From contig JBATDG010000075.1 in the NCBI GenBank assembly GCA_049663345.1, positions 11,793 to 75,792 on the forward strand: a DNA stretch of 64,000 bases, in the 5' to 3' direction. The position numbers were made by a program, and so were the translations under genes. Below, piece after piece: positions 2,429 through 63,400 of this stretch. Within the stretch, counting starts at the first letter, position 1; each line of letters begins with the position of its first letter. The DNA comes from Bacteroidota bacterium. GTDB taxonomy: Bacteria > Bacteroidota > Ignavibacteria > SZUA-365. A model generated the notes under the pieces. The model searched no databases and was not told where the DNA came from. It saw nothing but the letters and a program-made list of their open reading frames with translations.

Positions 2429-3369
2429 TGCAGCATGAAGATGCGGGCTATCACATACCGGTACTTCTCGAGCGTTCGATCGAGCTTCTCGTCACCGATC
2501 CGGCTGGGGTCTATGTAGACGGGACGCTCGGAGGCGGCGGTCATAGCCGTCTTTTGCTGAGTAAACTCGGAGAGAATAGTCGCGTCCTTGGTTTTGACCA
2601 GGACGAAGACGCAGTACAACACGCACAGAAGCTGTTCGCCGACGATCGCCGTATGACTGTCGTTCACAGCAATGTGGTCCATCTGAGCAACGTTCTCCAA
2701 CAAAACGAAATCCCTTTGATCGATGGCATCCTGCTTGACCTGGGCGTGTCGTCGCATCAGATAGATATACCGCAGAGAGGCTTCAGTATCCGATTTGAAG
2801 GCCCTCTCGACATGAGAATGGACCGCGAGAATACAGTGACTGCAGCAGACATCATAGCGCAAAGCTCGGAAGAGGAACTGGCGGACATTTTCTTCACCTA
2901 TGGTGAGGAGAGAAACAGCCGGCGCATCGCCCGTGCAGTCGTTCAGGCGCGAAGAATTCAGCCGCTGAAGGACACTGCGCGGCTGGTTGAAGTTATCAGC
3001 GCTGCCACCTCGCCGGTGCATCGGAGCAAGTCGCTTGCCCGCATTTTTCAGTCCCTGCGCATAGCCGTCAATGACGAACTGCAGGTTCTGAAAGACACCC
3101 TCGCGCAAGCAATGGAAGTGATGAAGGTCGGTGGCCACATCGTGGTCATTTCCTACCATTCGCTCGAAGACCGCATCGTCAAGCATTTTCTGCGGCACGA
3201 GGTTTCTTCATGTGTATGTCCGCCTCAGACGCCGATATGCGTCTGCGGCAAAATCAAACGAATCAAATTGCTTCACAGCAAGCATATAGAGGCAGATGAG
3301 AACGAAATACGTCGAAATCAACGAGCCCGCAGTGCCCGCCTTCGCGCAGGTGAAAAGATTCACGCGTAA
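2425..3369 (+). CDS. rsmH: 16S rRNA (cytosine1402-N4)-methyltransferase RsmH/MraW
   Basis: Start overlaps the mraZ stop (GTGATG). HIPVLLERSIELL...GTLGGGGHS SAM-binding motif. Conserved position after mraZ. Confidence 0.9.
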   Translation: MMQHEDAGYHIPVLLERSIELLVTDPAGVYVDGTLGGGGHSRLLLSKLGENSRVLGFDQDEDAVQHAQKLFADDRRMTVVHSNVVHLSNVLQQNEIPLIDGILLDLGVSSHQIDIPQRGFSIRFEGPLDMRMDRENTVTAADIIAQSSEEELADIFFTYGEERNSRRIARAVVQARRIQPLKDTARLVEVISAATSPVHRSKSLARIFQSLRIAVNDELQVLKDTLAQAMEVMKVGGHIVVISYHSLEDRIVKHFLRHEVSSCVCPPQTPICVCGKIKRIKLLHSKHIEADENEIRRNQRARSARLRAGEKIHA

Positions 3370-3773: not shown

Positions 3774-5945
3774 GTGCCGTTGGAACCCTACGATTATAGA
3801 CCAGGACGAAATGAGGATCTCCGGATTCTGCAGAGACAGCAGAGTTCGGTGCGCATGTATATGCTCATTACCATTTTTCTGACCGGATTCTTCGCCATTC
3901 TGGTCAAGCTTTTTGTTATTCAGGTCCGCGATGCGGAAAAGCTGCAGGAAATGGCGCGCATCCAGTACGAGAGCCGGGAGATCATCAGGCCCGTCCGCGG
4001 TCTGATCCTTGATCGCAATCTTTCCATTCTTGCCTCCAACGTGACCGAATACACGCTTTCTGTCGATCCCTCTGTTATTGATTGCCCCGACACCGTCGCA
4101 CGCTTCATCTCCAGGGCTCTTGGCATACCGTACCAGAGCATGTTGAAGCATTTCCGCGATACCACTGTCCAGTACGACATCATCCAAAAACACATTCCGG
4201 AAGAAATCGCCGATAAATTCGACGGTTGGTCCTGCTATGGTGTGCGTATGCGGTCTTTCCCGCGGCGGCGCTACAATTTCAACGCACTCGCGGGTCCGGT
4301 GATCGGCTACACGAACATCGACAATAGCGGACAGAGTGGAATGGAACTGGAGATGAACAGCGAGCTATCCGGCAAGGAAGGGTTCATCGTCTATCAGCGC
4401 AATGCACGCGGCACGCGCCGGCCTGAGGTAGACTATCCGAAAGTGGAACCGGTGAACGGCCGCAGCGTAGTGCTCACGATCAGTCAGGTGTATCAGTCCA
4501 TCGCTGAAGAGGAACTCGCCCGCGGCGTCACGCTGCACGAGGCGGAGTCCGGCCGCTGCATCATCCTGCAGCCGAAGACCGGGGAAATTCTCGCCATGGC
4601 AAACGTGCCAAGCATCGATCCCAACAAGCTTTCCGAATATACTCCGGAAAAAGCGCGTAACCGCGCAGTGACGGATCTCTACGAGCCGGGCTCCACGTTT
4701 AAAATCGTTGCCATGAGCGGTGCACTCAATGAAGGATTGCACAAACCGCAGGACCGCATCAACGCCGAAGGCGGCAAGTGGCTGTACAACGCAAAACTTA
4801 AACCGATCGTAGACGATCATCCCTATGCTTCGCTCACCCTGCGCGGCGCCTTCGAGCACAGCTCTAACATCGTTTCTGCGAAACTCGCCAATGAACTGGG
4901 CGACGAACGCTTCTACAAATATGCACGGAATTTCGGCTTTGGAGTGAAGACCGGTATCGAGATGCCGGGCGAGCTCAACGGAGACCTTCGCAAGCCTCTT
5001 GATTGGGACGGCACGACGCTCAACTACCTGGCATTCGGCTACGGCCTCGCCGTGACGCCGCTGCAGATCGCCTGCGCTTACGCAGCGATCGCGAACGACG
5101 GAGTGCTGATGCGGCCGTTCATTCGCAAATGGATGCTTGATGCGGACCGCAACATCGTCGACGAAACCGTGCCGCAGGTCGTCCGCCGCGTCGTCTCCTC
5201 CGAGACCTCCCGCATCATGCGCGGCTTCATGCAGGGTGTGGTCGACAGCGGTACCGCGAAACTGGCGAAGATCGAAGGAATGAATATCGGCGGAAAAACC
5301 GGTACCTCTCAGCGGCTCGTCAACGGCTCCTACTCCAATAAATCGCATGTGGCGTCGTTTGTTGGATTCTTCCCTGTTGAAGATCCGGAAGTCCTTATCC
5401 TCGTGATCCTTGATGCGCCGAAGCGCGGGTATTACGGCGGAACCACAGCCGGACCGATTTTCCGCACGATTGCGATGCGCATCATCAACTCGTCGAGCGA
5501 TTTTGCGAAAAAGCCGGAACCTCTGTATGCGTCTTTCAAAGGCTCCGACCGGGTGCGCGTACCTAATGTCCGCGGCATGCGGGCCGACATGGCCAGCCAG
5601 GTGCTCAAGGCACATGGCTTCAACATGGAAACCGTCGGCAGCGGTGAACTCGTGGCCGAGCAGCTTCCGGCCGAAAACGCATTCTCCGAACGCCGCACTC
5701 CCGTCACTGTGCGGCTCATTGGCGCGAATCGGGCAGGGAAGGACGATCTGGTGCGGGTACCCGACGTTGTGGGAATGTCGCTGCGCCAGGCAATGAATTT
5801 TATCAAAGGCATGAATCTCGAACCGAGTCCGATAGGCAGCGGTGTCGTCGGCTCCCAATATCCTGCTGCGGGAGAGCTTGTCCCCCGCGGAACGCGCTGC
5901 ACGCTCGATGGCGAGGCGCGCACGGTCACGGCAAACCTGTACTAG
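3774..5945 (+). CDS. ftsI: peptidoglycan D,D-transpeptidase FtsI (class B PBP) with two C-terminal PASTA domains
   Basis: PBP dimerisation and transpeptidase motifs (STFK, SSN, KTGT at ...GGKTGTSQ). Two PASTA-like repeats (VPNVRGMRADMASQVLKAHGF..., VPDVVGMSLRQAMNFIKGMNL...). The GTG start at 3774 is uncertain; an alternative is ATG 3855. Confidence 0.85.
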   Translation: MPLEPYDYRPGRNEDLRILQRQQSSVRMYMLITIFLTGFFAILVKLFVIQVRDAEKLQEMARIQYESREIIRPVRGLILDRNLSILASNVTEYTLSVDPSVIDCPDTVARFISRALGIPYQSMLKHFRDTTVQYDIIQKHIPEEIADKFDGWSCYGVRMRSFPRRRYNFNALAGPVIGYTNIDNSGQSGMELEMNSELSGKEGFIVYQRNARGTRRPEVDYPKVEPVNGRSVVLTISQVYQSIAEEELARGVTLHEAESGRCIILQPKTGEILAMANVPSIDPNKLSEYTPEKARNRAVTDLYEPGSTFKIVAMSGALNEGLHKPQDRINAEGGKWLYNAKLKPIVDDHPYASLTLRGAFEHSSNIVSAKLANELGDERFYKYARNFGFGVKTGIEMPGELNGDLRKPLDWDGTTLNYLAFGYGLAVTPLQIACAYAAIANDGVLMRPFIRKWMLDADRNIVDETVPQVVRRVVSSETSRIMRGFMQGVVDSGTAKLAKIEGMNIGGKTGTSQRLVNGSYSNKSHVASFVGFFPVEDPEVLILVILDAPKRGYYGGTTAGPIFRTIAMRIINSSSDFAKKPEPLYASFKGSDRVRVPNVRGMRADMASQVLKAHGFNMETVGSGELVAEQLPAENAFSERRTPVTVRLIGANRAGKDDLVRVPDVVGMSLRQAMNFIKGMNLEPSPIGSGVVGSQYPAAGELVPRGTRCTLDGEARTVTANLY

Positions 5946-7526: not shown

Positions 7527-8938
7527 CACTCCGCATTTCAAATCTACTGACCATTTCCCATGTGCGCGCCATCAATCTTGAGGCGGTATCCGATGCCGCA
7601 ATCGGATCCGTCGCAACCGATTCCCGCACGGCCGGCCGGGGTGATGTGTTCGTCGCATTCCGGGGAAGCCGGGTCGATGCGCATGATTTCGTTGCAGACG
7701 TCTGCAAACGCGGCGCGCTATGCTGCGTCGTCGAGCAGCGCTGGTACCGGCGCAACGCCGCCGCGGTGAGCGGGCTGCCTCTGTTCGTGGTTAAGGACAG
7801 CATGCTTGCCTACGGCGCAATCGCGCAGCTGCACCGCGCACAATTCAATGTTCCGGTTTTAGCCATCACCGGCAGCAACGGCAAGACCAGCACGAGGGAA
7901 ATGGTAGCGGCGGTGCTTCGCAGCAAATTCCGCGTGCTCGCCACAGATGGAAATTTCAACAATCATATCGGACTCCCCGCGACGCTGCTGCGTCTGACGC
8001 CCGAGCATCAGATTGTCGTCACAGAAATGGGTACCAACCAGCCGGGCGACATTGCGTATCTATGCGGGATTGCGAATCCCACTCACGGATTGATCACCAA
8101 CATCGGCCGTGCGCATATCGAAAAACTGATTTCCCGCGAAGGCATCGCCGAAGAAAAGGGAGTTTTGTATTCTTCTCTGCCTGCGGACGGAGTCGCCCTG
8201 ATCAATGCCGATGAGCCGCTGCTGCGAATCAAACTTCCGCGCCGCGTACGCAGCATTCGCTACGGCACCCGCAAAGGCAGCGACGTGCGGATCGCCGATG
8301 TAAAGCTTGATCGTTCCGGCCGCGTGCAGCTTCGCATCGAAGCGCCGGAGTTCACTGCGAAGCCCATCACGATTCGTCTGAAGGCGGTCGGCCGTCATTC
8401 CGCATACAATGCCGCAGCTGCGGTTGCCGCAGGATTCGCTTTCGGCTGCGGCGTATCGAAAATCAAAGCTGCGCTGGAATCGGTAGAGAGCTTCGACAAA
8501 CGGCTGCAGATTGGAAGCGCGCGAGAGATTACCGTTATCAACGATACCTACAACGCCAACCCGGATTCGATGCTGGCCGCCATAGATCTTCTGCAGCAGA
8601 TCAAGATCGACGGAGCACGCTGTGTGGTTCTGGGCGACATGCTCGAACTGGGAAAGGCCACCCGCAGTGAGCATGAAGCACTTGGCGCGGCGCTCGCTGC
8701 AACAGGTATTCCCTATGTGTTGACGTATGGCCGTCATGCCCGCGCCATCAGCCGGGCGGTGCTCGGTGTGGCGAAAGTGGCGATGCATTTCACCGACAAA
8801 GCAGCACTGTGCGAAACGCTGGATGCATTACTTGCTCCCGGCGACGCAGTGCTCATCAAAGGATCACGCAGCATGCGGATGGAAGACGTCGCTGCACATC
8901 TGCTTCAAAGTGATACCATCGAGGAGGCGCACGCATAA
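7523..8938 (+). CDS. murF: UDP-N-acetylmuramoyl-tripeptide--D-alanyl-D-alanine ligase
   Basis: ATGA start/stop overlap with murE. ITGSNGKTSTREM P-loop and Mur ligase C-terminal domain. Confidence 0.88.
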   Translation: MTLRISNLLTISHVRAINLEAVSDAAIGSVATDSRTAGRGDVFVAFRGSRVDAHDFVADVCKRGALCCVVEQRWYRRNAAAVSGLPLFVVKDSMLAYGAIAQLHRAQFNVPVLAITGSNGKTSTREMVAAVLRSKFRVLATDGNFNNHIGLPATLLRLTPEHQIVVTEMGTNQPGDIAYLCGIANPTHGLITNIGRAHIEKLISREGIAEEKGVLYSSLPADGVALINADEPLLRIKLPRRVRSIRYGTRKGSDVRIADVKLDRSGRVQLRIEAPEFTAKPITIRLKAVGRHSAYNAAAAVAAGFAFGCGVSKIKAALESVESFDKRLQIGSAREITVINDTYNANPDSMLAAIDLLQQIKIDGARCVVLGDMLELGKATRSEHEALGAALAATGIPYVLTYGRHARAISRAVLGVAKVAMHFTDKAALCETLDALLAPGDAVLIKGSRSMRMEDVAAHLLQSDTIEEAHA

Positions 8939-13706: not shown

Positions 13707-14186
13707 ATGATCAAGCAGGAATACAGTTTCAAGCATCGCAACGATCTCTACTATGTCACGCTGCTCGTATACGTGGCGTTTGCGGTGCTCTACATCGTCG
13801 TCACCGGAACGATCACCGACGACAGCGTGGAATTCGGATTGAAGGACCCGGTAGTCTACATCATCGCTGCATTCATCTTGCATGCGCTGATCATGCTGCT
13901 GACGAGCGTTGTCCGCAACCGGCGGCTGGTCATCACCGAGGATTCGCTGGTGTTCGCTTCACGCTTCCGCGAGCGCTTCGTTCCCTTCAGCAGCATCGAA
14001 CGCATCACGCTGAAGCACGAACGCCGCCGGCTGAGCAACAGCAAGCTGAGCGATCGAAAATTCGCAGTGATCAAACTGCATGTCGCAGGCCGGCGCCGCG
14101 TCGTTCGCCTTCGCGTCGCCGCCTATGAGCGCGAGAAAGAACTCTATCAGATTCTCAAGAAGCTGAAGCATGATTTGAAGCTGTGA
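13707..14186 (+). CDS. small membrane protein with bacterial PH domain (YdbS/bPH_2-like), embedded in the dcw operon
   Basis: Two predicted TM helices (LYYVTLLVYVAFAVLYIVV, VVYIIAAFILHALIMLLTSVV) followed by an ~80-aa basic domain resembling the bPH_2 fold. ATG lies 1 nt after the murG stop. Confidence 0.5.
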   Translation: MIKQEYSFKHRNDLYYVTLLVYVAFAVLYIVVTGTITDDSVEFGLKDPVVYIIAAFILHALIMLLTSVVRNRRLVITEDSLVFASRFRERFVPFSSIERITLKHERRRLSNSKLSDRKFAVIKLHVAGRRRVVRLRVAAYEREKELYQILKKLKHDLKL

Positions 14187-14264
14187 AGACGTGAGGACGT
14201 GAGGACGTGAAGACGTGAGGACGTGAGTACGTGAGTACGATAGGACGTGAGTACGATAGGACGG
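14183..14264. repeat. 9-bp-unit tandem repeat array (GACGTGAGG / TACGATAGG units) ending ...TAGGACGG
   Basis: gtgaagacgtgaggacgtgaggacgtgaagacgtgaggacgtgagtacgtgagtacgataggacgtgagtacgataggacgg starts at the stop codon of the preceding gene. The same family recurs at 38061-38204. Confidence 0.85.
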
Positions 14265-18764: not shown

Positions 18765-18810
18765 GAATTAGGAATTACGAATTACGAATTAGGAATTACG
18801 AATTACGACG
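18765..18810. repeat. 9-bp-unit tandem repeat (GAATTAGGA / GAATTACGA)
   Basis: gaattaggaattacgaattacgaattaggaattacgaattacgacg lies 6 nt after the ftsA stop. A second copy sits at 58045-58079. Confidence 0.85.
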
Positions 18811-18913
18811 TAAATAACACGTCCCCGGAAACGGACGATTATATACAGCGAATGCAAAATGAAAAACAGTGAATTACATGCAAACACATCACCCACACAC
18901 TGAGGAGGGCCTT

Positions 18914-20101
18914 ATGGCTATCGTATACGACAACAGCACAGACAGCCGGGCGAAGATCCGGGTCGTCGGTGTCGGCGGCGGAGGCGGCAACGCGGTGGAA
19001 GACATGATCAACCGAGGAATTGATAATGTCGAGTTCATCACAGTCAACACTGACGCACAGGCACTCGATCGAAGCGGTGCCACGTACAAAATCCAGGCAG
19101 GGAAGAATTTGACGCGCGGTCTCGGCGCCGGCGCGGATCCATCAGTTGGATACCGTGCGGTCGAGGAAGACAAGGAAGAGCTGGCCACAGTGCTCGCAGG
19201 CAGCGACATGGTATTTGTGACCGCCGGCATGGGCGGTGGTACCGGTACGGGCGGTGGACCCGTCGTCGCGAATCTCGCCAAGGGCACCGGAGCGTTGGTC
19301 GTCGGCATTGTCACGAAGCCGTTCCATTTCGAAGGCAAGCGCCGCATGGCACAGGCTGAGGAAGGCATCGAAGAACTGCGTAAGCACGTTGACACCCTCA
19401 TCGTGATTCCCAACCAAAAGCTGTTGTCGTTGGTGGACAAAGGTACGCCTTTGTCCGAGGCCTTCATGCTCGCAAACGAAGTACTATATAACGCCACACG
19501 CGGAATTGCGGAGATCATCGCAGTGCCGGGTTTGGTGAACGTCGATTTTGCTGATGTCCGCACGATCATGCGCGACATGGGCGACGCCTTGATGGGCAGC
19601 GGTGTAGCCGAAGGCGAAAACCGCTCTGTCGAAGCAGCGCACAACGCGATCTCGAGTCCTCTGCTTGATGGCATCTCGATCGCCGGAGCGCAGGGCGTGC
19701 TCGTCAACATCACGGGCGGATCGGATCTCTCGCTAGCCGAAATCGACGAAGCGGTTTCCATCATCACCGAAGCCGCTGGCGAAGACGCCAACGTCATCTT
19801 CGGTTCCGTGATCGATCCCACACTCGAAGGCAAGTTGGTGGTCACCGTAATCGCCACGGGCTTCAATCGCGCAAGGGGACGCGGGGCCAACCGTCCTGCC
19901 GCACCGCAGCAGCGTCAGCAGGCTCGCGCCTCGCACATCCCGACCGGCATCCACGAAATCCGCGAGCTCGACGAGCCCACCTTCATTCGCAAGGGCCTCA
20001 CGCTCGCCTCCACTCAGGACATGGACGAAGACACGACCGGTCAGCGCATCGAGAAATCGAATCCCGACCGCCCGGCTTTCCTCCGGAAGATAATGGACTA
20101 G
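18914..20101 (+). CDS. ftsZ: cell division GTPase FtsZ
   Basis: GVGGGGGNAV tubulin signature and GMGGGTGTG T7 loop. Start moved to ATG 18914 behind GGAGGG. Confidence 0.92.
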   Translation: MAIVYDNSTDSRAKIRVVGVGGGGGNAVEDMINRGIDNVEFITVNTDAQALDRSGATYKIQAGKNLTRGLGAGADPSVGYRAVEEDKEELATVLAGSDMVFVTAGMGGGTGTGGGPVVANLAKGTGALVVGIVTKPFHFEGKRRMAQAEEGIEELRKHVDTLIVIPNQKLLSLVDKGTPLSEAFMLANEVLYNATRGIAEIIAVPGLVNVDFADVRTIMRDMGDALMGSGVAEGENRSVEAAHNAISSPLLDGISIAGAQGVLVNITGGSDLSLAEIDEAVSIITEAAGEDANVIFGSVIDPTLEGKLVVTVIATGFNRARGRGANRPAAPQQRQQARASHIPTGIHEIRELDEPTFIRKGLTLASTQDMDEDTTGQRIEKSNPDRPAFLRKIMD

Positions 20102-20200: not shown

Positions 20201-20383
20201 GTAAGCCTTCGCCCTGAAAGGGCGGACCATTGCAGCCCAGGGCGTTAGCCCTGGGTTAGCGGTGCGGCCTTAATAAATCCCCTTCGCCCTGAAAGTCGGA
20301 GGTCCAAAGGACCGAAGACTCGCCCGAGGCGAGGGCGAAACACGATTCTCTCCTCCCAATCTCTCCCTTACTCAGCCAACGCA

Positions 20384-38056: not shown

Positions 38057-38060
38057 AAAC

Positions 38061-38204
38061 GTTAGGACGTGAGGACGTGAGGACGTGAGGATCGTTAGGA
38101 CGTGAGGATCGTTAGGACGTGAGGACGTGAGGATCGTGAGGACGTGAGGATCGTGAGGACGTGAGGATCGTTAGGATCGTTAGGATGTGAGGATCGTTAG
38201 GACG
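38061..38204. repeat. 9-bp-unit tandem repeat array (GACGTGAGG / ATCGTTAGG units) ending ...TTAGGACGG
   Basis: gttaggacgtgaggacgtgaggacgtgaggatcgttaggacgtgaggatcgttagg... starts 5 nt after the S9 peptidase stop. Same family as 14183-14264. Confidence 0.85.
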
Positions 38205-44481: not shown

Positions 44482-46050
44482 ATGTGTTTCCATACGTTTG
44501 CGATGGGGTCTTCATTCGCGCGATATGAGAGCGGCGTGATTGTGCACGACTGCGTTGTGCCATCGGCACGGCCTGTCGTGGGCACGACAAATTCCTTGTA
44601 TGAAATTGACGTACGTGAATTTCTCACCAGCGAGAAAAATGCCGTAGTGAAGCAGGTACTTCGGCGTGACATGCGGCGAATGCTGGATGACGCCTCGCGC
44701 ATCCCTGCGGAGGCTCCGCTTTTCGGTGTATACAGGAGCGCGTGGGAATTCTTCCAATCCAGTGATCAGGGGTCGTTTGATTTCCGGGCCCGCGCGGTGC
44801 AGCAATTTGTCGCTCAAGCGGTCCGCTACCGCCGCGACCCCCGGCGTGATACCTGGCAATTCCCGGACGAGACTCTGAGACTTGGCCGCGGCGACTGCGA
44901 AGACATTGCCTTTCTCGTGGCGTCTCTATTGCTCGGCAGCGGCATCAGCGGTTACAATATTCGTGTCTGCCTGGGGACCGTCGAGATGAGCACGCCCCGC
45001 AGCAGGAAATCGTTCGATCACATGTGGGTGATGTACAAGGATGAGCAGGGGCAATGGAATGTCATAGAACCGCTTTCCTTAAGCGCCACCGGGGAAGCGT
45101 CTCAAAAGACGAAAGCACCAGGAAAGGGTGCAGCCGCTGCTCCCATACTTTCATATATCCCCGAGTTCGGATTCAATGTCGATCATCTCTGGCAGTACGG
45201 GACGGCGCAGAAAGCCTCCTTTCAGGAGCGGGCGGAGCTGCGGAAGGAGTGGGTGCGTTTCGAGCCGCGCTTTGCCGGCTTCGTCCATCAAAGCCTCATT
45301 CACGACGCCCTCGCAGCGCGAGCGGCTGCGCATCCGCTCCTGCTGAACTTGCTGAACCAGGAATTCACTGTATTCCTCGGTGATCCGGCGAACACCGTCG
45401 CTGAGATCGATCTGCCTTGGAAATACCATCCGTTCGATCATTTCGATAATGGATACATCTCCGAAAGCTGGTCCCGGGCGCGTCAGCGTTTGGAGAGATG
45501 CATGGACCCGGCGAATCGCGAGATGGTGCGGGACTTCTCCCGCGCTGCGCACGCCATCGCCGATTACTATGCGCACACCTCCTATGCGCATTTCGCACAA
45601 CGGGATGCACAGGGTGCGCTCCTGCTTGCGAAGGACGATCTCTGGAGCGACACGGCGCTCGCCCGCTGGCCGGATTACAGCAACGGATCCGATTTCCCGA
45701 TCAATGATTTCCGTCCCGCAACTCCATGGCAGGGACGGGACTCGCAGCGGGTAGCGGTGTGGAATGGCGCCTTGCTCAGCGGGCGCTGGCGGCTTCCCGG
45801 AGATTTCGGCACCCCGCCCGAGGCTTCGCTCTGGGCTACAGAGCAGCGTGACAGGAGAATGCGCTACAGGATGGCTCTCCCGCATCACGATGAAATCGCA
45901 GTGGACAAACCGTCTGCCAATGGCGGCAGCAACGGACTTTACGATTCAGCGACCTTTGACGCGCAATACACTCTCCGCTACGATGCCGCCGTTCGCCACG
46001 TCCGCTGGGCCTTCGCACATTACGGAAGCGAACTGGAGAAGCTGGGGTAG
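44482..46050 (+). CDS. fusion protein: N-terminal transglutaminase-like cysteine-protease core plus C-terminal zinc phospholipase C / S1-P1 nuclease-like domain (hypothetical)
   Basis: N-terminal half: RLGRGDCEDIAFLVASLLLGSG (Cys), HMWVMYKDEQGQW (His), Asp downstream. C-terminal half: His/Asp-rich motifs HPFDHFDNGY, AHAIADYYAHTSYAH and LPHHDEIAVDKPS, reminiscent of Zn-PLC/P1-nuclease metal ligands. No signal peptide seen, and the start is uncertain. Confidence 0.45.
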   Translation: MCFHTFAMGSSFARYESGVIVHDCVVPSARPVVGTTNSLYEIDVREFLTSEKNAVVKQVLRRDMRRMLDDASRIPAEAPLFGVYRSAWEFFQSSDQGSFDFRARAVQQFVAQAVRYRRDPRRDTWQFPDETLRLGRGDCEDIAFLVASLLLGSGISGYNIRVCLGTVEMSTPRSRKSFDHMWVMYKDEQGQWNVIEPLSLSATGEASQKTKAPGKGAAAAPILSYIPEFGFNVDHLWQYGTAQKASFQERAELRKEWVRFEPRFAGFVHQSLIHDALAARAAAHPLLLNLLNQEFTVFLGDPANTVAEIDLPWKYHPFDHFDNGYISESWSRARQRLERCMDPANREMVRDFSRAAHAIADYYAHTSYAHFAQRDAQGALLLAKDDLWSDTALARWPDYSNGSDFPINDFRPATPWQGRDSQRVAVWNGALLSGRWRLPGDFGTPPEASLWATEQRDRRMRYRMALPHHDEIAVDKPSANGGSNGLYDSATFDAQYTLRYDAAVRHVRWAFAHYGSELEKLG

Positions 46051-51127: not shown

Positions 51128-53437
51128 TTACCCCCGAAACCCGAACAATCCCCCAGTTTTCTCAAAAGCCCCCTGGCTTTCCTGTTCGCAGGCTCCTACC
51201 AGATCTTCCATTGTAAGCTTGTCGCCGCGGGAGGCAGCGGTGCGGAGGGCGTTTGCGGCGGCGATGGCGATCTGTCCTCCGGTGAACGTAAAGCGCTCGG
51301 AAAGACGCTCAAAATCGACCTCCGGGGTGCGGGGAACGCTCACGGGAATATGCCCTTTCCACAACGCAACGCGGGCTGCCATGTCGGGCGCGGCGAAAGA
51401 GATCTTGTAATCAAAGCGGCGGCTAAAGGCGTCGTCGAGGGATTCCATGAGATTGGTAGTGGCGATCAGGATTCCCGGGAAGCGCTCGAGCTGTTCGAGC
51501 AGGATGTTCTGCAGCCTGTGCTCGGTCTGGTCGGTAGAACGTCCGCCGCCGCCGCTGGACTCCCGTCTCCCCATTAGCTGGTCGCATTCGTTGAGCAGAA
51601 GCACAGGCGGCTTTTCACTGACGCGCATGAGCCGCGCATAGGAAGAGAACATCCGCTGAAGCTGGCTTTCGCTGCCGCCGTACCATTTCGAAAGGATTTT
51701 CGTGGCATCGGTTATAAGCAGATCGCGTCCGAGAGAGGCGGCGAAGGCCTCGGCGGTGTAAGTCTTACCGGTTCCTGGAGGACCGTGGAACAGCAGCAGC
51801 ACCGAGCCGCTGGGACGCGTTGCCGTGACGTGCTCAATTCCCCAGGCACGCAGGCGTTCGAGCTGTTCGCCGTGAACTGATCCCATTGCGACGTCGAGAC
51901 TCTTCCGCAGCTCAACGGGGAGCACGGCGCTGTCGAGGTTGTGTCCCGGTTGCCGGCGTTCGAATAGCTGCGATCCGTCGAAATCCGCGGCCTCCTTACT
52001 CTCAAGGGAATTTTCTTCCAGAATACGTTGAAGAATGGAGTCGGGGATTGTATAGTCGCTGCTGCCCATGAAGCCCTCCTCGACGTCGATGAGTCCATGT
52101 TTGCGCAGCGGCGAACCATCGCGGAAATAGCGCTGGCAGCGGAAGCCCTTAAAGTAGTCAGTTCCCCCAAGCGCCTCGGTAGCGTTCTGTATACCAACTC
52201 CGCCGCCTTTGAGGCCGGCGTAGAGGGCGAGTCCGAGTATGATGCGCTCGTTGACGTCGAGTTCCATGTCCCGCGCGATCTGCTCGAAGGGATAGACGGT
52301 TCCGCTTTCGCCTATGCGCCGCAGCAGCGACTGCACTTCCGGCAGCTTTTCGGCCGCTTCGCCTTTTCTCGGTCTTCGGCGTCTCCTCCGGAATTGGGGC
52401 GGAAGGTGGGAATTCTCCTCATCGTTCATCAGGAACTTTGCTACGTCGCACCAGGCAGAAAGAAACGCTTCATTGTTTTCGAATGCGCTTTCCGCCGGCT
52501 CCGCTTCGCTGTGCCGGAAATTCCGCGGAGAATCGCCTCCATTGACAAGCCAACTGCTGAGGGATTCGTCAATCACGACATCCTGCCGCATGAGAGGACC
52601 CACTCCATCAAGTTCAATAATTCCGTTTGCGATAAGAGTGCCGTCGCCCTCGAAATAGCCGCGATAGGTATAGCGGTCGAAGAGATCTCCGCTGCCGGCG
52701 ATTTCAATCAGGTCATGCACCTCAGGCAAATCCCCTTCAAGTTCGCCGCGCAATACAAGCAGCAGCATCGTCCAGTCGCTGCGGTCGAGATTGAGTTCCT
52801 GCGCGAGAGCCTCGAGCGGAGGCAGCGGATCAGTGAGAGAGCCCTTTCGACGCAGATAGGCATACTTGCTCTCGGCTGTGTTTCCTTCATCTGTTTTCTC
52901 CGTCGAGGCGCCCAGCTTTTTGCGGGAACGCCCACCTTTCTGAAGATCGCGGTTCTCAAGGAGGAGATCCAAGTAGGAGAAGCAGTCCTGCAGGTACGAT
53001 TTATTGGAAGCATAGCCCATTTGTTCGAGCGCTGGATCGAAGTCGGGGTCCTGCAGCCGCAGAGCGATCCGCAGCTGCCGCTTCTCGCTGCCCCGCAGCG
53101 CGGCGAGCGTATGGACGTCGGAAGGACCTTCATTTCCGCTGCCGTCGAGCACGGCGATATACTCCCTTTCAGCCAATGAAGCAAGCACAACATCCCAACG
53201 CAGGCGGAGGTGATAATCCTTCGCGGCGGCCTGCAGATGGCCGATATCGGTCAGCAGGTTGCCTCGCTGTGTTTCGCGGGAAAGCACGGCCAGCGCCGCC
53301 AGCTCCTCTTCCGAACAGGGGTGCGGCAGCAGTTCCGCACAGTTTCCCATTCCGCCGCGGATCTGCTTCCTGTCGTTGTCTGACAGGGCCTCAGCCAGCG
53401 AATCCAGCGCTTCGAGAATTTCTATTTCTGAACACAT
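51128..53437 (-). CDS. AAA+ ATPase (classic AAA clade) with ~500-aa uncharacterised N-terminal region
   Basis: C-terminal AAA module: Walker A GPPGTGKT, Walker B VLLLNECDQL, second region of homology ATTNLMESLDDAFSRRFD. The N-terminal 500 aa have no motif I recognise. 769 aa. Confidence 0.75.
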   Translation of the reverse strand: MCSEIEILEALDSLAEALSDNDRKQIRGGMGNCAELLPHPCSEEELAALAVLSRETQRGNLLTDIGHLQAAAKDYHLRLRWDVVLASLAEREYIAVLDGSGNEGPSDVHTLAALRGSEKRQLRIALRLQDPDFDPALEQMGYASNKSYLQDCFSYLDLLLENRDLQKGGRSRKKLGASTEKTDEGNTAESKYAYLRRKGSLTDPLPPLEALAQELNLDRSDWTMLLLVLRGELEGDLPEVHDLIEIAGSGDLFDRYTYRGYFEGDGTLIANGIIELDGVGPLMRQDVVIDESLSSWLVNGGDSPRNFRHSEAEPAESAFENNEAFLSAWCDVAKFLMNDEENSHLPPQFRRRRRRPRKGEAAEKLPEVQSLLRRIGESGTVYPFEQIARDMELDVNERIILGLALYAGLKGGGVGIQNATEALGGTDYFKGFRCQRYFRDGSPLRKHGLIDVEEGFMGSSDYTIPDSILQRILEENSLESKEAADFDGSQLFERRQPGHNLDSAVLPVELRKSLDVAMGSVHGEQLERLRAWGIEHVTATRPSGSVLLLFHGPPGTGKTYTAEAFAASLGRDLLITDATKILSKWYGGSESQLQRMFSSYARLMRVSEKPPVLLLNECDQLMGRRESSGGGGRSTDQTEHRLQNILLEQLERFPGILIATTNLMESLDDAFSRRFDYKISFAAPDMAARVALWKGHIPVSVPRTPEVDFERLSERFTFTGGQIAIAAANALRTAASRGDKLTMEDLVGACEQESQGAFEKTGGLFGFRG

Positions 53438-53485
53438 AACGCCTCACTTGTGATTACAGTCTGTAATACAAGTTAAGGTCCAGAA

Positions 53486-53504
53486 TGTCAGATGGTGACA
53501 AACA
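53486..53504. promoter_or_regulatory. palindrome TGTCA-N5-TGACA (+TTCT on the minus strand), ~45 nt upstream of the AAA+ ATPase start
   Basis: Plus strand tgtcagatggtgaca at 53486-53500. Minus-strand reading is TGTCAccatcTGACAttct. A near-identical site lies in the WYL regulator's own upstream region (56800-56818). Confidence 0.45.
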
Positions 53505-53523
53505 GATGAACTACATCCGTACA
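53490..53523. repeat. 34-bp direct repeat, copy B (agatggtgacaaacagatgaactacatccgtaca)
   Basis: 29/34 identical to 55759-55792. The two copies flank the low-GC hybrid histidine kinase gene. Confidence 0.7.
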
Positions 53524-53618
53524 GGCGGTACATTTTTTTTGGTGCTGCGAAAAAAAAGCTGCAGACGGATGCTCTCGCGCTATTTGTCTGCAGCAATTGG
53601 ATAAGGGGAAGAACTTGT

Positions 53619-55469
53619 TCAACGGATCTGCAACTGCTCCCTGAAGTACTTATCGACTAAGGATAGCAGATCATTCTTTTTAATGGGCTTGGAGATATAG
53701 TCGTTGCAGCCTGATTCAAGCGCTTTTTCTCTGTCACCGGTTAATCCGTAAGCTGTTTGTGCAATTATGACAACATCAGGATTAAACTTCCGGATTTGCC
53801 GCGTCGCTTCATATCCGTTCATCTCGGGCATTTGAATGTCCATCAATATCAGGTCGAGATCGGGGTTGTTGCGGCAGGCTTCAACTGTTCCAACTCCTGT
53901 CCTGGCCTTCAAGATATTTTTGCTGAACCTGCTTACCATTATTGATAAATATTTTTCCGATGTTTCATCGTCCTCGGCAATGAGTACTTTCAACCCTAAA
54001 TCTGCAGCTGGGGCGATACTATCTTCAACAGAGCCCGAAGCCGTAATTTCGATACCGGCCCTCTCTTCCTTCTTGACATGATAAGGCAAGGTGAAATAAA
54101 ACGTTGAACCCACGCCGGGTTCGCTTTCCACCCAGATCCTGCCGCCAAGCATTTCTATGTATGATCTGGTAATCGCCAATCCCAGGCCCGCACCTTGTCT
54201 TGCCATTTTATCTTCGATATCGGCCTGAACGAAGCGCTCAAAAATGGCCTCCTGTCTGTCCTTTGGAATTCCAATCCCAGTGTCTTTCACGAAGAACTGC
54301 AGCGACGGAACAGCTTCCGCGGCTGCAAAGCCATATCCGAATTCTATGGAACCTTCGTCGGTATATTTAACTGCATTCTTGATGAGATTGGTAAGAATGG
54401 CAAATAATTTTTCCCTGTCGGTAATAATAGCTGCTTCCTTCGCAGACAATTTGCTGCCAAGGGAAAGTTGTAATCCTTTGGCTTCCGCCTCGGGTTTGAA
54501 AAAGGTGCAAATGTAATCAAGCTGCTCATTTACATTCGATTCGTCCAGATCCAATTTCATCAGGCCGGATTCTATTGTTGAGATGCTGATTATATCGTTG
54601 ATGATATTGAGCATTCGTACGCTGGCATTTTCTATAATACCGATATACTCCTGCTGCTGCTCGCCGGTAAGATCAGCCGCTTTCAGCAATCCTGCAAAGC
54701 CGACGACGCCATTCATGGGAGTTCTGATTTCGTGGCTCATGTTCGCCAAAAAGGCTGACTTAAGGCGGTCGCTTTCTTCGGCCCTTTCCTTGGCCATTTG
54801 CAGCTCGTTGGTCCGCGCTTCTACTGTCTTTTCGAGGTCATTATTAATCGCTTCAACACGTGATTTTTCTCTGTCAAGTTCGTAATTCAGGAAAAAGTTG
54901 TGACGCGCGTAATATTCAATATTGTAGGAAGCGAGCATCCCGATGATATTCGCACTGATAAAGAAGAAGTTGGTGTTAATGAGCACAATATGCGAGGCAT
55001 GTGAGTAGAATATCGCGCCAAGATTAAAAATCAACAGTGTAGTCCATCCCGCAATCGATGCAAGGAAAAACCGGAGTTTAATAAAGAAGTATCCTGCCGC
55101 GAAGATCAGCATCATGCCGGCATAGTAAGCATAATTTTCGGGCACAAACATAGTCATTACAATAACGCCCGATCCGGCTACAATAAAACTTATGAACAAT
55201 AGCCCTTGCCAAATCTTTTGAAATACTCTGGTAAAAGACAGAAGAAATACTATGGTTAGTGTTGGAATGACGAAGACAAATCGGATTATGTGGAAATGGA
55301 CGGCATAATCCGGGAACATTATTGAATCCAGATACCCAAATATTCCGTAAAGCAATACAACTAATACAAAGGAGACTCTGAATTGATTGACAGAGTCAAG
55401 GTAGTATTGTTTCTGGAAGGCCTCTTCCTCCTTTCCGGGAAAGGCCAGGGTCATTTTATTATATTGCAT
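53619..55469 (-). CDS. hybrid sensor histidine kinase / response regulator with N-terminal polytopic membrane sensor
   Basis: About 6 TM helices, coiled coil, HisKA ([16 protein letters not shown]), HATPase_c (G-boxes [14 protein letters not shown]), C-terminal REC (LIAEDDE...LMDIQMP...KP). GC is ~42%, against ~60% for neighbouring genes. Confidence 0.85.
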
Positions 55470-55758
55470 CGTTTTTGGGCAATCGTGTTTCGTTAAGGTA
55501 CTAAGAGCGAAGCTCGCATCCCCGCAAGCTGCAGGCAGAGATGAAACTCTGTGTGTAGTGATGCTGGATAATCCACCGACGCCCCTGTTCGAATAGCTCC
55601 GCCATATCAGTACCAGTAAGAACTAGAAAATGATTTTATTGTAGGAATAGCGGGAAAAATATTGAAATCGATCATCATTAGCAAGAACGCGGTTCTGTTC
55701 ATGACGCATGATTGCTGTTCGGGCGGTAGAAATCACTATACGTGAGGTGCCCGATATA

Positions 55759-55792
55759 AGATGTTGACAACCAGATGAACTGTATCAGTACA
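55759..55792. repeat. 34-bp direct repeat, copy A (agatgttgacaaccagatgaactgtatcagtaca)
   Basis: 29/34 identical to 53490-53523. Overlaps the stop codon of the WYL regulator gene. Confidence 0.7.
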
Positions 55793-56747
55793 GACTGCTC
55801 ATTCTATTTATGGCGCTGCGCATCGAGTCGCGGAGGGAGACGGGTTCGAGCACCTCGGCATATTCGCCCCAGCGGAGAATCCAGGCGATGAGCTCATTCG
55901 ACGGACCCAGACGCATGCGGAGTATGAGGTCGCCGTTTTCGTCGTCGGACATTTTCTGGCTCGGGTGCCACTGGCGGGACTCGATCGACCCGCGCACAGT
56001 TTTCGCGAAGCGGATCACCACATCCTCGGGAGTCTCATACCAGATGCCGAAACTGTCCTTCAGAACTTCGCTGAGCGAATATGCGGGATCGCGTTCGAAA
56101 GTGTCGTCTGTCAGCTCCACCGTTCGGAAGCGCGGGAGGGCGAAATAGATCGAATTGTTATAGGGAGGAACTCGTCCGATAATATAGAGAGCGCCGTTGT
56201 GCAGGAGGAGGGAATAGGGATGCAGCTTGTATTGCTTGCTGCGGTAGCGCACCTTCGCCACGCGGCGGTGCACGATGGCCTCGAAAAGGTCGCGCAGCAT
56301 ATCCGATCGCTCGCTGAGATCCGCCAGGCCGGGCTGGTGGACGTGAAGGAGCCCGCCCGAAAAGGCGTCCGGCACAGCTATGGCATCGTCGGGCAGCAGC
56401 TGAGTGAGTTTGTCGAACACACTGAGCATATCAGTCTCCAAGCGGGTGCCGGCAAACACTTCGCGGAACTGAAGCAGCAGCACGGCGGCCAGCACCTCCT
56501 CAGGCGTCAGCAGCTGGGGAATGAACTGGAAGCTGCGATCGAGGGAGTAATATTTTTCATTGTGTGGGCCCGTCCGCAATCGCAGCGGAATCGACGCGCC
56601 TTCTATATGCCTGATCGTGCGCTGAATCGTCTGCTTCGATTCCTCCTCTCCGAAATAATCATGAAGTTCCTTCACCGTCACGTCGTCGTGCGTACTGAGT
56701 CTCTGCAGAATACGGAGCGCACGGATGAGCATCGTCATTTCGGCCAT
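55785..56747 (-). CDS. WYL-domain transcriptional regulator (wHTH - WYL - WCX architecture)
   Basis: N-terminal winged HTH (LIRALRILQRLSTHDDVTVKELHDYFGEEESKQTIQRTIRHIE). Central domain with ...AKVRYRSKQYKLHPYSLLLHNGALYIIG... resembling the WYL core. C-terminal extension. 320 aa. Confidence 0.55.
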   Translation of the reverse strand: MAEMTMLIRALRILQRLSTHDDVTVKELHDYFGEEESKQTIQRTIRHIEGASIPLRLRTGPHNEKYYSLDRSFQFIPQLLTPEEVLAAVLLLQFREVFAGTRLETDMLSVFDKLTQLLPDDAIAVPDAFSGGLLHVHQPGLADLSERSDMLRDLFEAIVHRRVAKVRYRSKQYKLHPYSLLLHNGALYIIGRVPPYNNSIYFALPRFRTVELTDDTFERDPAYSLSEVLKDSFGIWYETPEDVVIRFAKTVRGSIESRQWHPSQKMSDDENGDLILRMRLGPSNELIAWILRWGEYAEVLEPVSLRDSMRSAINRMSSLY

Positions 56748-56799
56748 GGGGTCCTCACGGTTGCGGTTTAAAACCAGCTCGGAAGGTACGGGTGCAGTC

Positions 56800-56818
56800 T
56801 GTCATCCACTGACATTCT
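56800..56818. promoter_or_regulatory. palindrome TGTCA-N5-TGACA-TTCT, ~50 nt upstream of the WYL regulator start (candidate autoregulatory operator)
   Basis: tgtcatccactgacattct in the divergent intergenic region between the WYL gene and the TMEM175-like gene. Matches 53486-53504 in both half-sites and the TTCT flank. Confidence 0.45.
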
Positions 56819-57057
56819 AACCTAGGATATTTATAACAGAAAACGAACTCCCCTGCCGGTTTCTTTCCCCTCAAGACAATACCCGAGCGATTCACGCACT
56901 GCCTGACCGGGCGCCAGCTTCATCTCGATCGCAGCATCACTGCCTGGATGCGTGCGATGGTGAATGAATAGCGGCTCGTTTAGATTGCGTTGCACAAAAC
57001 CCCATTCGGTGATAGATTATCCCGATCTCATCTCCCGGAAATTGTCAGGAATTGCGA

Positions 57058-57664: not shown

Positions 57665-58036
57665 ATGAACGCGCGCAAGGATCTCATACGCGAATACAAG
57701 GAACGAAAAAAGACGGCCGGGGTTTTTCAGGTGAAAAACACGGAGAATGGAAAAGTGCTCATAGGCGGCAGCCTGAATCTCGAAGGTGTGCTCAACGGAC
57801 AGAAGTTCCGTCTCGATACCGGAACCCACCGCAACGCTGCGCTGCAGGCGGAGTGGAAGTCCTTCGGTGCGGCGGCCTTCACGCTTGAAATTCTCGAGGA
57901 GGTGAAGGAGACGGACGATCCGCATTTCAATGTGGAGGACGAACTCACTCTGCTTGAAGATATCTGGCTCGAGAAACTCGAACCGTACGGGGAGCTGGGT
58001 TATAATACGCGTGGGACGAAATTTCGTCAGGTGTAA
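57665..58036 (+). CDS. GIY-YIG nuclease-family protein (standalone)
   Basis: AGVFQVKNTENGKVLIGGSLNLEGVLNGQKFRL has GIY..YIG spacing with the catalytic Arg. 123 aa. Confidence 0.6.
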   Translation: MNARKDLIREYKERKKTAGVFQVKNTENGKVLIGGSLNLEGVLNGQKFRLDTGTHRNAALQAEWKSFGAAAFTLEILEEVKETDDPHFNVEDELTLLEDIWLEKLEPYGELGYNTRGTKFRQV

Positions 58037-63028: not shown

Positions 63029-63108
63029 TTAGGGCGTAAAGAGGTAATGAGGTAAAGAGGTGAAGGGGTAAAGAGGTAAAGAGGTAAAGACGTAAAGGCG
63101 TTAGGGCG
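63029..63108. repeat. 9-bp-unit tandem repeat (GGTAAAGAG) bounded by TTAGGGCG on both sides, in the 5' leader of the T9SS beta-helix gene
   Basis: ttagggcgtaaagaggtaatgaggtaaagaggtgaaggggtaaagaggtaaagaggtaaagacgtaaaggcgttagggcg. Confidence 0.8.
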
Positions 63109-63192
63109 AAAGAACGGCCCGTAGGGGCGAACCACCTTCCAGACCTGTTCAGCTTTCCGCAACGAACGGCCGTTCAAATCGCGATGAACGCT

Positions 63193-63400
63193 CGAATTTC
63201 ACGTCGGTTCGCCCGCGTATCAGGGCACCGCAACGTTCGAATTTCGCGTCGGTTCGCCCGCGTAACGGGTCACCGCAACGTTCGAATTTCACGTCGGTTC
63301 GCCCGCGTATCAGGGCACCGCAACGTTCGAATTTCGCGTCGTTTCGCCCGCGTATCAGGGCACCGCAACGTTCGAATTTCGCGTCGGTTCGCCCGGGAGC
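63193..63400. repeat. 45-bp tandem repeat, ~5 copies (cgaatttcRcgtcggttcgcccgcgtaWcRggNcaccgcaacgtt)
   Basis: Head-to-tail units start at 63193, 63238, 63283, 63328 and 63373 (last one truncated), with 1-4 mismatches per unit and no spacers. Confidence 0.9.

Follow-up and report, generated by a model that had tools for sequence, protein, structure and literature searches.

Does a single WYL-domain regulator control both its own promoter and that of a neighbouring AAA+ ATPase? The question is raised by a locus in 64,000 nucleotides of Bacteroidota DNA (Ignavibacteria, SZUA-365; contig JBATDG010000075.1, positions 11,793 to 75,792), referred to here as the window, for which a first-pass annotation had proposed a module made up of a WYL regulator gene (55785–56747, minus strand), an AAA+ ATPase gene (51128–53437, minus strand) and an operator shared by the two. 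Our analysis supports the central idea of one WYL regulator, two operators and one module, since the genes are linked in every related locus of the ATPase subfamily and the sites are conserved and co-vary. Judging from sequence comparison, we consider it probable that one palindrome, present in both promoters, is recognised by the WYL factor, which in this way gates AAA+ expression. The most economical reading is that of a two-gene module secondarily split by a foreign kinase cassette.

The core sequence TGTCANNNNNTGACA (TGTCA-N5-TGACA) occurs without mismatch only twice in the 64 kb window, at 53486–53500 and 56800–56814, where 0.04 would be expected, and none of 100 shuffled sequences reached two or more. 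Allowing one mismatch added a single match, located inside the AAA+ open reading frame. Both perfect cores form the centre of a 23-bp palindrome, AGwwTGTCA-N5-TGACAwwCT, which in the window reads AGAATGTCA-N5-TGACATTCT; the TTCT flank that had first been attached to the core is real in both sites, but it is only one arm of this longer palindrome. The WYL-side operator (56796–56818) lies 52 nt 5′ of the ATG at 56747 and reads AGAATGTCAgtggaTGACAGACT on the gene strand, while the AAA+-side operator (53482–53504) lies 48 nt 5′ of the ATG at 53437 and reads TGTTTGTCAccatcTGACATTCT, so the observation of one palindrome standing before both genes holds. The two sites are inverted in orientation relative to their genes, their arms are identical at 16 of 18 positions, and a GTGAGG Shine-Dalgarno-like element is present at both genes. 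A direct-repeat reading of the half-sites (TGWCA is nearly self-complementary) was considered and rejected, the AGww/wwCT flanks being clearly inverted.

The window was also scanned with a symmetrised weight matrix built only from sites of other genomes, the window sites having been left out. The AAA+-side operator received the best score (24.4) and the WYL-side operator the second (21.6), followed by a shifted overlap at 13.7; the maxima of shuffled sequences averaged 10.9, with a top value of 17.8. No motif site was found in 3.6 kb of extra contig sequence at the 5′ end, and over the 64 kb window plus this segment the motif is confined to the two promoters.

Homologous operators are found in other genomes, whose loci are numbered here with the prefix L. 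On the WYL side, a distance of 43–82 nt separates the 23-bp site from the downstream WYL start, both in the window and in L001 (AGTTTGTCActtgaTGACATTCT), L004 (AGATTATCAcccggTGACATTCT), L007 (AGATTGTCGgagtaTGACAATCT), L012 (AGAATGTCAaatcgAGACAATCT) and L015 (AGATTGTCTcgattTGACAATCT), and a variant form precedes the WYL gene in L009 and L016. On the AAA+ side, homologous sites lie 12–46 nt upstream of the called start in 10 further loci measured by script, and those of L001 and L010 were read by eye; the sequences are, for example, AGTTTATCAatatcTGAGATACT in L001, AGTTTGTCAtcatcTGATATACT in L004, AGTTCGTCAtgatcTGACATACT in L007 and AGATCATCActatcTGATGTTCT in L010. Lineage-specific variants are common to both promoters of a genome. 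L009 carries AGTTTGACG-N5-TGTCGATCT at the WYL promoter and AGTTTGACG-N5-TGTCGTTCT at the AAA+ promoter (AGTTTGACGgaaatTGTCGATCT and AGTTTGACGtcttcTGTCGTTCT), a variant that stays ambiguous between direct and inverted half-sites, and the two promoters of L016 carry AGATCGTCA-N5-TGTCGTTCG and AGTACGTCA-N5-TGTCGATCT (AGATCGTCAggaatTGTCGTTCG and AGTACGTCAcgttcTGTCGATCT). Where the half-sites are TGTCA, the putative recognition helix of the WYL protein is SKQT; where they are CGTCA or TGACG, it is S(A/L)RT or TRRT. An adjacent WYL protein that reads the sites should produce such a parallel change of helix and half-site, and we infer that it binds them.

Additional high-scoring sites were detected in L001 (184–206), L015 (10779) and L008 (3149 and 9894), and the regulon therefore appears to be small but variable. 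The copy in L001 (AGATCATCAgtgtcTGACGATCT, score 22.9), the third strong operator of that locus, is ~8 kb from the WYL gene and sits 5′ of a 580-aa gene running off the locus, a gene that the regulon may include. L008, which has a WYL gene and no AAA+ gene, contains variant palindromes of the CGTCA-N5-TGACG type at 3149, 7805 and 9894, one of them upstream of a WG-repeat protein gene; here the same regulator family appears to be wired to other cargo.

The linkage of the two genes is equally regular. All eight loci found of the 757–794 aa ATPase subfamily (the window, L001, L004, L007, L009, L010, L016 and L092) have a WYL gene beside the AAA+ gene. The WYL gene is upstream on the same strand in seven of the eight and downstream in L092, where two tandem AAA+ paralogues are followed by WYL. 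It is directly upstream in L001 (AAA+ protein 51% identical), directly adjacent in L009 (a 5.2-Mb Bacteroidia assembly) and adjacent in L010 and L016, while four genes have been inserted between the pair in L004 (AAA+ protein 49% identical) and three stand between them in L007. More distant WYL genes (33–49% identity) precede 606–627 aa proteins, also composed of winged-helix and AAA domains, in L013 (a Calditrichota metagenome-assembled genome), L019 and L020 (both from one Dojkabacteria metagenome-assembled genome), L023 (a Marinimicrobia metagenome-assembled genome) and L093. The single Dojkabacteria genome thus holds two separate pairs, whose AAA+-side operators are nearly identical. The matches listed in a DNA-pattern scan of metagenomes were mostly distant AAA relatives and not close family members. 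Among them, a WYL gene was near 8 of 29 loci whose ATPase has Asn-Glu in the Walker B motif, as in the window, versus 1 of 38 with Asp-Glu (Fisher p = 0.008).

Other neighbours recur in part of these loci. A protein of ~133 aa is encoded after the AAA+ gene in L009 (11516–11923) and L016 (11745–12125) and near it in L001 (13618–14019) and L007 (13993–14406); it has only weak PHROG matches, with a polynucleotide kinase/phosphatase-like region, and the window is without a copy. At L012 (4272–7694) and L015 (2968–6468), the WYL-divergent neighbour encodes a McrB-like ATPase of the AAA_5 type, 1140–1166 aa long and in L012 equipped with an EVE domain; in L015 a gene convergent downstream of WYL specifies a 375-aa protein with a weak PF22977 match.

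The 320-aa regulator is a transcription factor with WYL and WCX domains and, at the N terminus, a probable winged helix-turn-helix (wHTH). Pfam matched the WYL domain (PF13280) at residues 150–211 with 34.4 bits (cut-off 21.8) and the WCX domain (PF25583) at residues 240–316 with 64 bits (cut-off 23.9), and the N-terminal HTH_11 match was weak (E 0.0013, 19 bits, under the cut-off of 25); PF08279 is carried by several homologues. Residues 1–60 are highly conserved, with R9, I13, L14, T24 and R43 invariant. Homologues fall into 47 clusters at 45–70% identity. Among proteins of solved structure, DriD is the nearest in sequence (E 6e-15, via the WCX region), and a profile search of solved structures matched DriD and PafBC at E <= 0.01.

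How the regulator would act may be read in part from the promoters. The −7 promoter element of Bacteroidota is TAnnTTTG. A TAACTTG box at 53469–53475 (minus strand), 6 nt downstream of the AAA+-side operator, resembles this element and is a candidate −10/−7 element of the AAA+ promoter; if it serves as such, the operator would span about −20 to −42, over the −35/−33 region. A TAnnTT box follows the AAA+-side site after 6–7 nt in 12 loci from several phyla, as TAACTTG in the window and L007, TAGATTG in L001 and L004, TATCTTG in L009 and L010, TAGATTA in L016, TTATCTT in L013 and L093, and TTATATT in L019, L020 and L023. The spacing between site and box is therefore held within 1 nt across phyla. 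At the WYL promoter, an A/T-rich box (TATAAATAT, 56827–56835, minus strand) lies 8 nt upstream of the operator and is a candidate core promoter element of the WYL gene, or the −10 of a divergent promoter; an ATAAA box is found at the same spacing (±1 nt) from the WYL-side operator in L001, L004 and L007. This arrangement, with the site 8 nt downstream of a TATAAATAT-like box, would suit autorepression.

Two types of WYL factor offer precedents for the AAA+ promoter. CapW is a repressor whose sites overlap the −10 element (PMC9122588), whereas DriD is an activator whose target sites stand at an identical distance 5′ of the −10, over a missing −35 (PMC13004042). The window agrees with the latter arrangement, its −10-like box being a predicted one. 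According to a BrxR/CapW model, the WYL protein would be a plain repressor at both promoters, occluding the −35/−33 region at the AAA+ gene, blocking its own promoter and being released by ligand. We regard this as quite possible, at somewhat below an even chance. BrxR and CapW are defence-island WYL repressors acting on palindromes in cognate promoters (PMC9122588; PMC11662680), and the sister loci of the window likewise sit among defence genes, including bacteriophage exclusion (BREX) genes in L004, restriction-modification in L007 and L009, GmrSD in L020, McrB-EVE in L012 and L015, SieB and toxin–antitoxin pairs. Moreover, the operator covers the positions where −35/−33 contacts would fall, and negative control was predicted by Iyer et al. 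for the WYL factors of systems centred on ADP-ribosylglycohydrolase (PMC9503650). In contrast to CapW sites, however, the site here stops 6–7 nt before the −10-like box; a spacing kept within 1 nt across phyla is a hallmark reported for DriD activator promoters (PMC13004042); and the solved structures matched at E <= 0.01 did not include BrxR or CapW. By analogy, the geometry of the AAA+ promoter would resemble that of the activator DriD at least as much as that of the repressors. Control would lean slightly to DriD-like, ligand-dependent activation, which fits slightly better than simple occlusion; geometry does not settle the direction, and derepression of the BrxR/CapW type remains the alternative.

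According to Pfam and AlphaFold2, the 769-aa ATPase combines a single AAA+ domain of the classic clade with winged-helix domains, about three in number. The AAA domain (PF00004, residues 548–681, E 6.8e-26) is nearest in structure to the D2 domain of Cdc48/VAT/p97, to Rpt subunits and to Vps4, in agreement with the clade first assigned to it. The N-terminal ~500 aa had been called unannotatable; they instead form a winged-helix array, in which PF22977 (winged helix domain, variant) matches residues 137–299 (E 1.3e-13). In a confident AlphaFold2 model (mean pLDDT 85.8), helix-helix-helix-strand-strand units at about 43–97, 207–289 and 383–463 are followed by the single AAA domain. The sequence motifs are GPPGTGKT (Walker A), VLLLNECD (Walker B), KWYG (pore loop) and a C-terminal FGFRG. 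Conserved across the family are Walker A, the catalytic Glu, the sensor-1 Asn (T660/N662), the Arg-Arg fingers (R673/R674) and a K-W-(Y/V)-G pore loop with invariant W585 and G587. Throughout the WYL-linked clade the Walker B motif is LLLNE(C/A)D, with Asn for Asp and the Glu kept, a departure from the canonical hhhhDE. An h-G-F motif (hGF tail) is conserved in the last 3–9 residues, behind a linker of low confidence in the model.

Close relatives of the ATPase are few. A word-indexed protein search returned only two close homologue clusters; a search of 1.84 billion proteins with the N-terminal 530 residues matched just 26 representatives, of which six were full-length; and repeating the word-indexed search with the family alignment added no relatives, the candidates being swamped by generic AAA words. 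PADLOC and NCBIfam gave no family-level match. Between genome pairs the winged-helix region is only 42–45% identical, compared with ~70% for the WYL protein and 64–74% for the AAA domain, and the N-terminal region is therefore fast-evolving.

The protein had been described as an orphan, yet profile comparison identifies it as a diverged relative of contractile-injection-system ATPases. Aligned by hhalign against members linked to extracellular contractile injection systems (eCIS), the profile of its group gave a probability of 100% and E 1.6e-46 over ~520 columns (196–747). The Afp15/Pvc15-type ATPases of these systems share its order of a PF22977 winged helix followed by a classic AAA domain with pore loop and Arg-Arg fingers (PMC11495950). 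On the basis of this profile homology, the window ATPase belongs to a sister clade of the Afp15/Pvc15 type. Pvc15 loads effectors, and its N domain has matches resembling DNA-binding proteins (PMC11495950).

This relationship raises the alternative that the ATPase serves a contractile injection system located elsewhere in the genome, in loading or assembly, and that the WYL protein merely regulates this system. Proteins with PF22977 and PF00004 do occur in eCIS loci together with sheath, gp19 tube, eCIS_core and Pvc16 genes (L090, in Sorangium, and L091), and such a setting was seen in 11 of 80 metagenome loci among the matches listed. Nevertheless, we judge this account very unlikely. No eCIS marker was found by blastp in ~15 WYL-linked loci or in the Pfam-tested subset of window open reading frames, and the WYL-linked clade is distinct in sequence, having a NE(C/A)D Walker B (NECD in the window) and the hGF tail, whereas the eCIS-linked proteins have a canonical FFDEAD Walker B and no such tail. 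The long subfamily has an additional N-terminal winged helix, and where Pvc15 has a degenerate D1 ATPase domain (PMC11495950), the AlphaFold2 model of the window protein has the winged-helix-like units 207–289 and 383–463; the stretch from PF22977 to the AAA domain is filled by winged-helix-like folds. The window ATPase thus differs from the eCIS ATPases by its extra winged helix, its WYL linkage and the absence of injection genes nearby.

Less probable again is that the palindromes are bound by another, possibly global, regulator and lie close to the WYL gene incidentally. TGTCA/TGACA-like half-sites are short and are used by many helix-turn-helix proteins. However, at least nine lineages have the site together with the WYL gene, among them L012, L015 and (in variant form) L008, which have no AAA+ gene; the site shifts in step with the WYL recognition helix; and the weight-matrix scan found no further site in the remaining ~60 kb of the window, housekeeping genes included.

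Between the two genes of the window stands a gene for a hybrid histidine kinase/receiver protein (53619–55469, minus strand; Pfam HisKA, HATPase_c and Response_reg). As first noted, its GC content is foreign (0.40–0.48 versus 0.52–0.62 in the flanks), and a repeat search with pairwise alignment showed that it is bracketed by 65-nt direct repeats, 74% identical and spaced 2269 nt apart. The AAA+-proximal copy (53476–53540) holds the working operator and a relic of the WYL gene 3′ end, and in the WYL-proximal copy (55745–55809) the WYL gene has its true stop codon, while the operator there (55759–55781, AGTTCATCTGgTTGTCAaCATCTtAtAT) is degenerate, with its right arm destroyed and a weight-matrix score of 9.0. 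Since the repeats flank a 2269-bp low-GC insert, the WYL and AAA+ genes must once have been adjacent; excising the 2269 bp in silico leaves a 78-nt spacer between them. The insert ends 3′ of the kinase gene in a hairpin (53559–53593) and a T8 run (53550–53557), both read from sequence, and the AAA+ gene therefore needs its own promoter. No kinase gene stands between WYL and AAA+ in L001, L009, L010 or L016, and other genes occupy this place in L004 and L007. The kinase is a secondary insertion into a formerly contiguous WYL/AAA+ pair and not a conserved part of the module. It is hardly credible that the repeat is no operator but a scar of recombination, or an attachment site, left by the cassette, for although a motif-bearing direct repeat flanks the insert and insertions occur at the same spot in other lineages, the WYL-upstream site (56796–56818) lies outside the duplicated segment, the insertion-free L001, L009, L010 and L016 show the same two-site arrangement, and only in the AAA+-proximal copy has the palindrome stayed perfect, the other having decayed, a sign of selection on the promoter-proximal copy. 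The spacer itself (53476–55809 in the window) looks like an insertion hotspot, with the kinase cassette here, four genes in L004 and three in L007; a conserved protein of 234 aa, weakly matched by the P-loop family AAA_33, is encoded in the insertions of L004 and L007.

Among known systems, the regulator, given its probable wHTH, has the domain order of the ssDNA-sensing (single-stranded DNA) wHTH-WYL-WCX activators DriD, PafBC and SiwR. DriD binds a pseudo-palindrome of ~21 bp, a copy of which, as here, stands before its own gene; the DriD motif is ATACGAC-N7-GTCGTAT compared with AGwwTGTCA-N5-TGACAwwCT; only L009 comes near GAC-N7-GTC (PMC10853764). The DriD regulon comprises DNA-repair and division genes, whereas the target here is the adjacent AAA+ gene. 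BrxR and CapW are autoregulated WYL factors encoded beside the genes they control, with a palindrome of ~20 bp and a defence-island setting (PMC9122588), and several related loci are alike in this. Membership of the BrxR/CapW systems was nonetheless rejected: Pfam and PADLOC found no BREX genes and no genes of the cyclic-oligonucleotide-based antiphage signalling system (CBASS) flanking the WYL gene of the window, whose partner belongs to neither, and such an association does not recur in related loci. In L004, the BREX genes are on the opposite strand and start ~2.3 kb past the AAA+ gene, not beside WYL. The best PADLOC and NCBIfam match of the ATPase, through its AAA domain only, was the anti-phage ATPase IetA/IteA of IetAS, a membership rejected because NF042959 gave 86.4 bits against a cut-off of 510 and no IetS (S8 protease) gene is adjacent.

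A further comparison concerns the anti-ADP-ribosylation systems predicted by Iyer et al. (2022), in which an ADP-ribosylglycohydrolase core lacking a coupled ADP-ribosyltransferase is combined with a WYL or Nudix factor and variable modules (PMC9503650, section 3.8). The window has the WYL-WCX factor; nucleases, helicases and chaperones are listed among the modules of these systems, and no AAA+ ATPase is (PMC9503650). In L001, L004 and L007, the WYL gene diverges from an ADP-ribosylglycohydrolase and Bflower_2 pair across the operator-bearing spacer, where the same WYL-side site would also suit control of the divergent operon. The glycohydrolase gene is accompanied there by nuclease-fold/helicase genes (DUF2779, or PDDEXK with UvrD), in agreement with the composition given by Iyer et al.; DUF2779 recurs in L001, L007, L020 and L023. 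L008 has a homologue (4727–5701) ~2.3 kb upstream of WYL with other genes between, and L016 has a pseudogene remnant at 7672–7845. A tblastn search with the glycohydrolases of related loci found no such gene in the window, which appears to have lost this arm; the WYL–AAA+ pair is also found without it in L009, L010, L013, L019, L020 and L023. The literature search yielded no prior description, either for WYL with AAA+ and an operator, for PF22977 or for WYL with contractile injection, and the initial statement that no such module had been described stands to that extent.

Taken together, these comparisons suggest how the module might work. Known WYL dimers recognise ~20-bp palindromes, both in front of their own genes and at target promoters (PMC9122588; PMC10853764), and ssDNA is the ligand of DriD, PafBC and CapW (PMC9186387; PMC11804915; PMC11662680). 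According to the proposed model, a dimeric wHTH-WYL-WCX factor would bind AGwwTGTCA-N5-TGACAwwCT at its own promoter, resulting in autoregulation, and the same palindrome at the adjacent promoter of the winged-helix AAA+ gene, whose expression would depend on the input to the WYL domain. To judge by DriD, PafBC and CapW, this input would most likely be ssDNA or a nucleotide-derived signal, arising when DNA is damaged or phages attack. The gene so induced would encode a hexameric unfoldase that threads its substrates; its fast-evolving winged-helix array would choose the target, which may be a protein or a complex bound to DNA. The tripeptide (L/I/V)-G-(F/L) is the ClpP-docking element of ClpX and ClpA, and proteasomal ATPases have C-terminal docking tails. 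We take the hGF tail to resemble these, and it may dock the ATPase to a partner, e.g. a peptidase. A bolder version, which we hold tentatively and think rather unlikely as a whole, would make this an undescribed, self-contained inducible defence or damage-response system, in which a nucleic-acid or ADP-ribose-derived signal induces an unfoldase derived from an injection-system loader ATPase, the winged helices pick a phage or DNA-bound target and the hGF tail hands it to a housekeeping peptidase.

Several observations weigh against the two-gene module. Five loci with a WYL orthologue have no AAA+ gene (L008, L011, L012, L014 and L015), and the regulator is therefore not dedicated to the AAA+ gene; conversely, among the metagenome matches listed, most Asn-Glu-clade ATPases have no WYL gene in the available flank, and a WYL gene was present in 5 of the 13 such loci having at least 1.5 kb upstream. 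No matching site was seen 5′ of the WYL gene itself in the distant L019, L020 and L023. A scan for sigma-70 and terminator consensus sequences returned nothing at either operator, and the −10-like box and promoter assignment are inferred. In addition, the similarity to DriD is limited to the WCX region, and the replacement of the Walker B Asp by Asn may alter or slow hydrolysis.

The remaining neighbours of the module differ in character. Downstream of the AAA+ gene and convergent with it are a Gp49 and HTH_37 toxin–antitoxin pair and an SRPBCC/AHSA1 gene. These had been placed beside the module in the first-pass annotation and are indeed present, but they are not conserved neighbours, and both were rejected as module members, neither recurring in related loci. 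A transglutaminase-core protein is encoded at 44482–46050 (plus strand), 5 kb from the module, and another (L013, 2640–4931) immediately 5′ of the WYL gene in the Calditrichota genome, which may be coincidence. Beside a TMEM175-like channel gene, a 123-aa protein (57665–58036, plus strand) has weak matches to GIY-YIG/group I intron homing endonucleases. The window as a whole is chromosomal, with a division/cell-wall cluster (mraZ to ftsA), an AcrB pump and type IX secretion substrates. Just 3′ of the last open reading frame (18869–20101) after this cluster, Rfam matched the small RNA Acido-Lenti-1 (20210–20255, minus strand; 48.1 bits, gathering score 37). Short tandem arrays with units of 7–8 nt in 6–17 copies (GTGAGGAC, ACGTGAGG, GTAAAGAG and GAATTAC) are located at 14183–14263, 38059–38204, 63036–63097 and 18765–18808, and longer tandem repeats at 63187–63395 (45-nt unit, 4.6 copies, 92% matches) and 1606–1716 (37-nt unit, 3 copies).

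WYL factors are emerging as common bacterial sensors of damage and infection, and few of their outputs are known, namely BREX, CBASS and the DriD and PafBC regulons. The module described here works like known WYL-controlled ones, while its output gene and promoter design are new to the searched literature; one large gene, for a predicted unfoldase, makes up the whole output, and the layout with two operators is clean and conserved. It offers a compact system for asking what WYL factors sense outside the model phyla, whether they activate or repress, and what role a contractile-injection-type ATPase plays when detached from the injection machine. The pair is small enough to be transplanted and tested against phages or DNA damage, and mutagenesis can start from two direct handles, Asn-Glu in Walker B and the conserved tail at the C terminus. 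It looks like an undescribed stress- or phage-inducible module present in several bacterial phyla, and the variable insertions and the ADP-ribosylglycohydrolase link in sister loci suggest a modular conflict system outside current defence catalogues.

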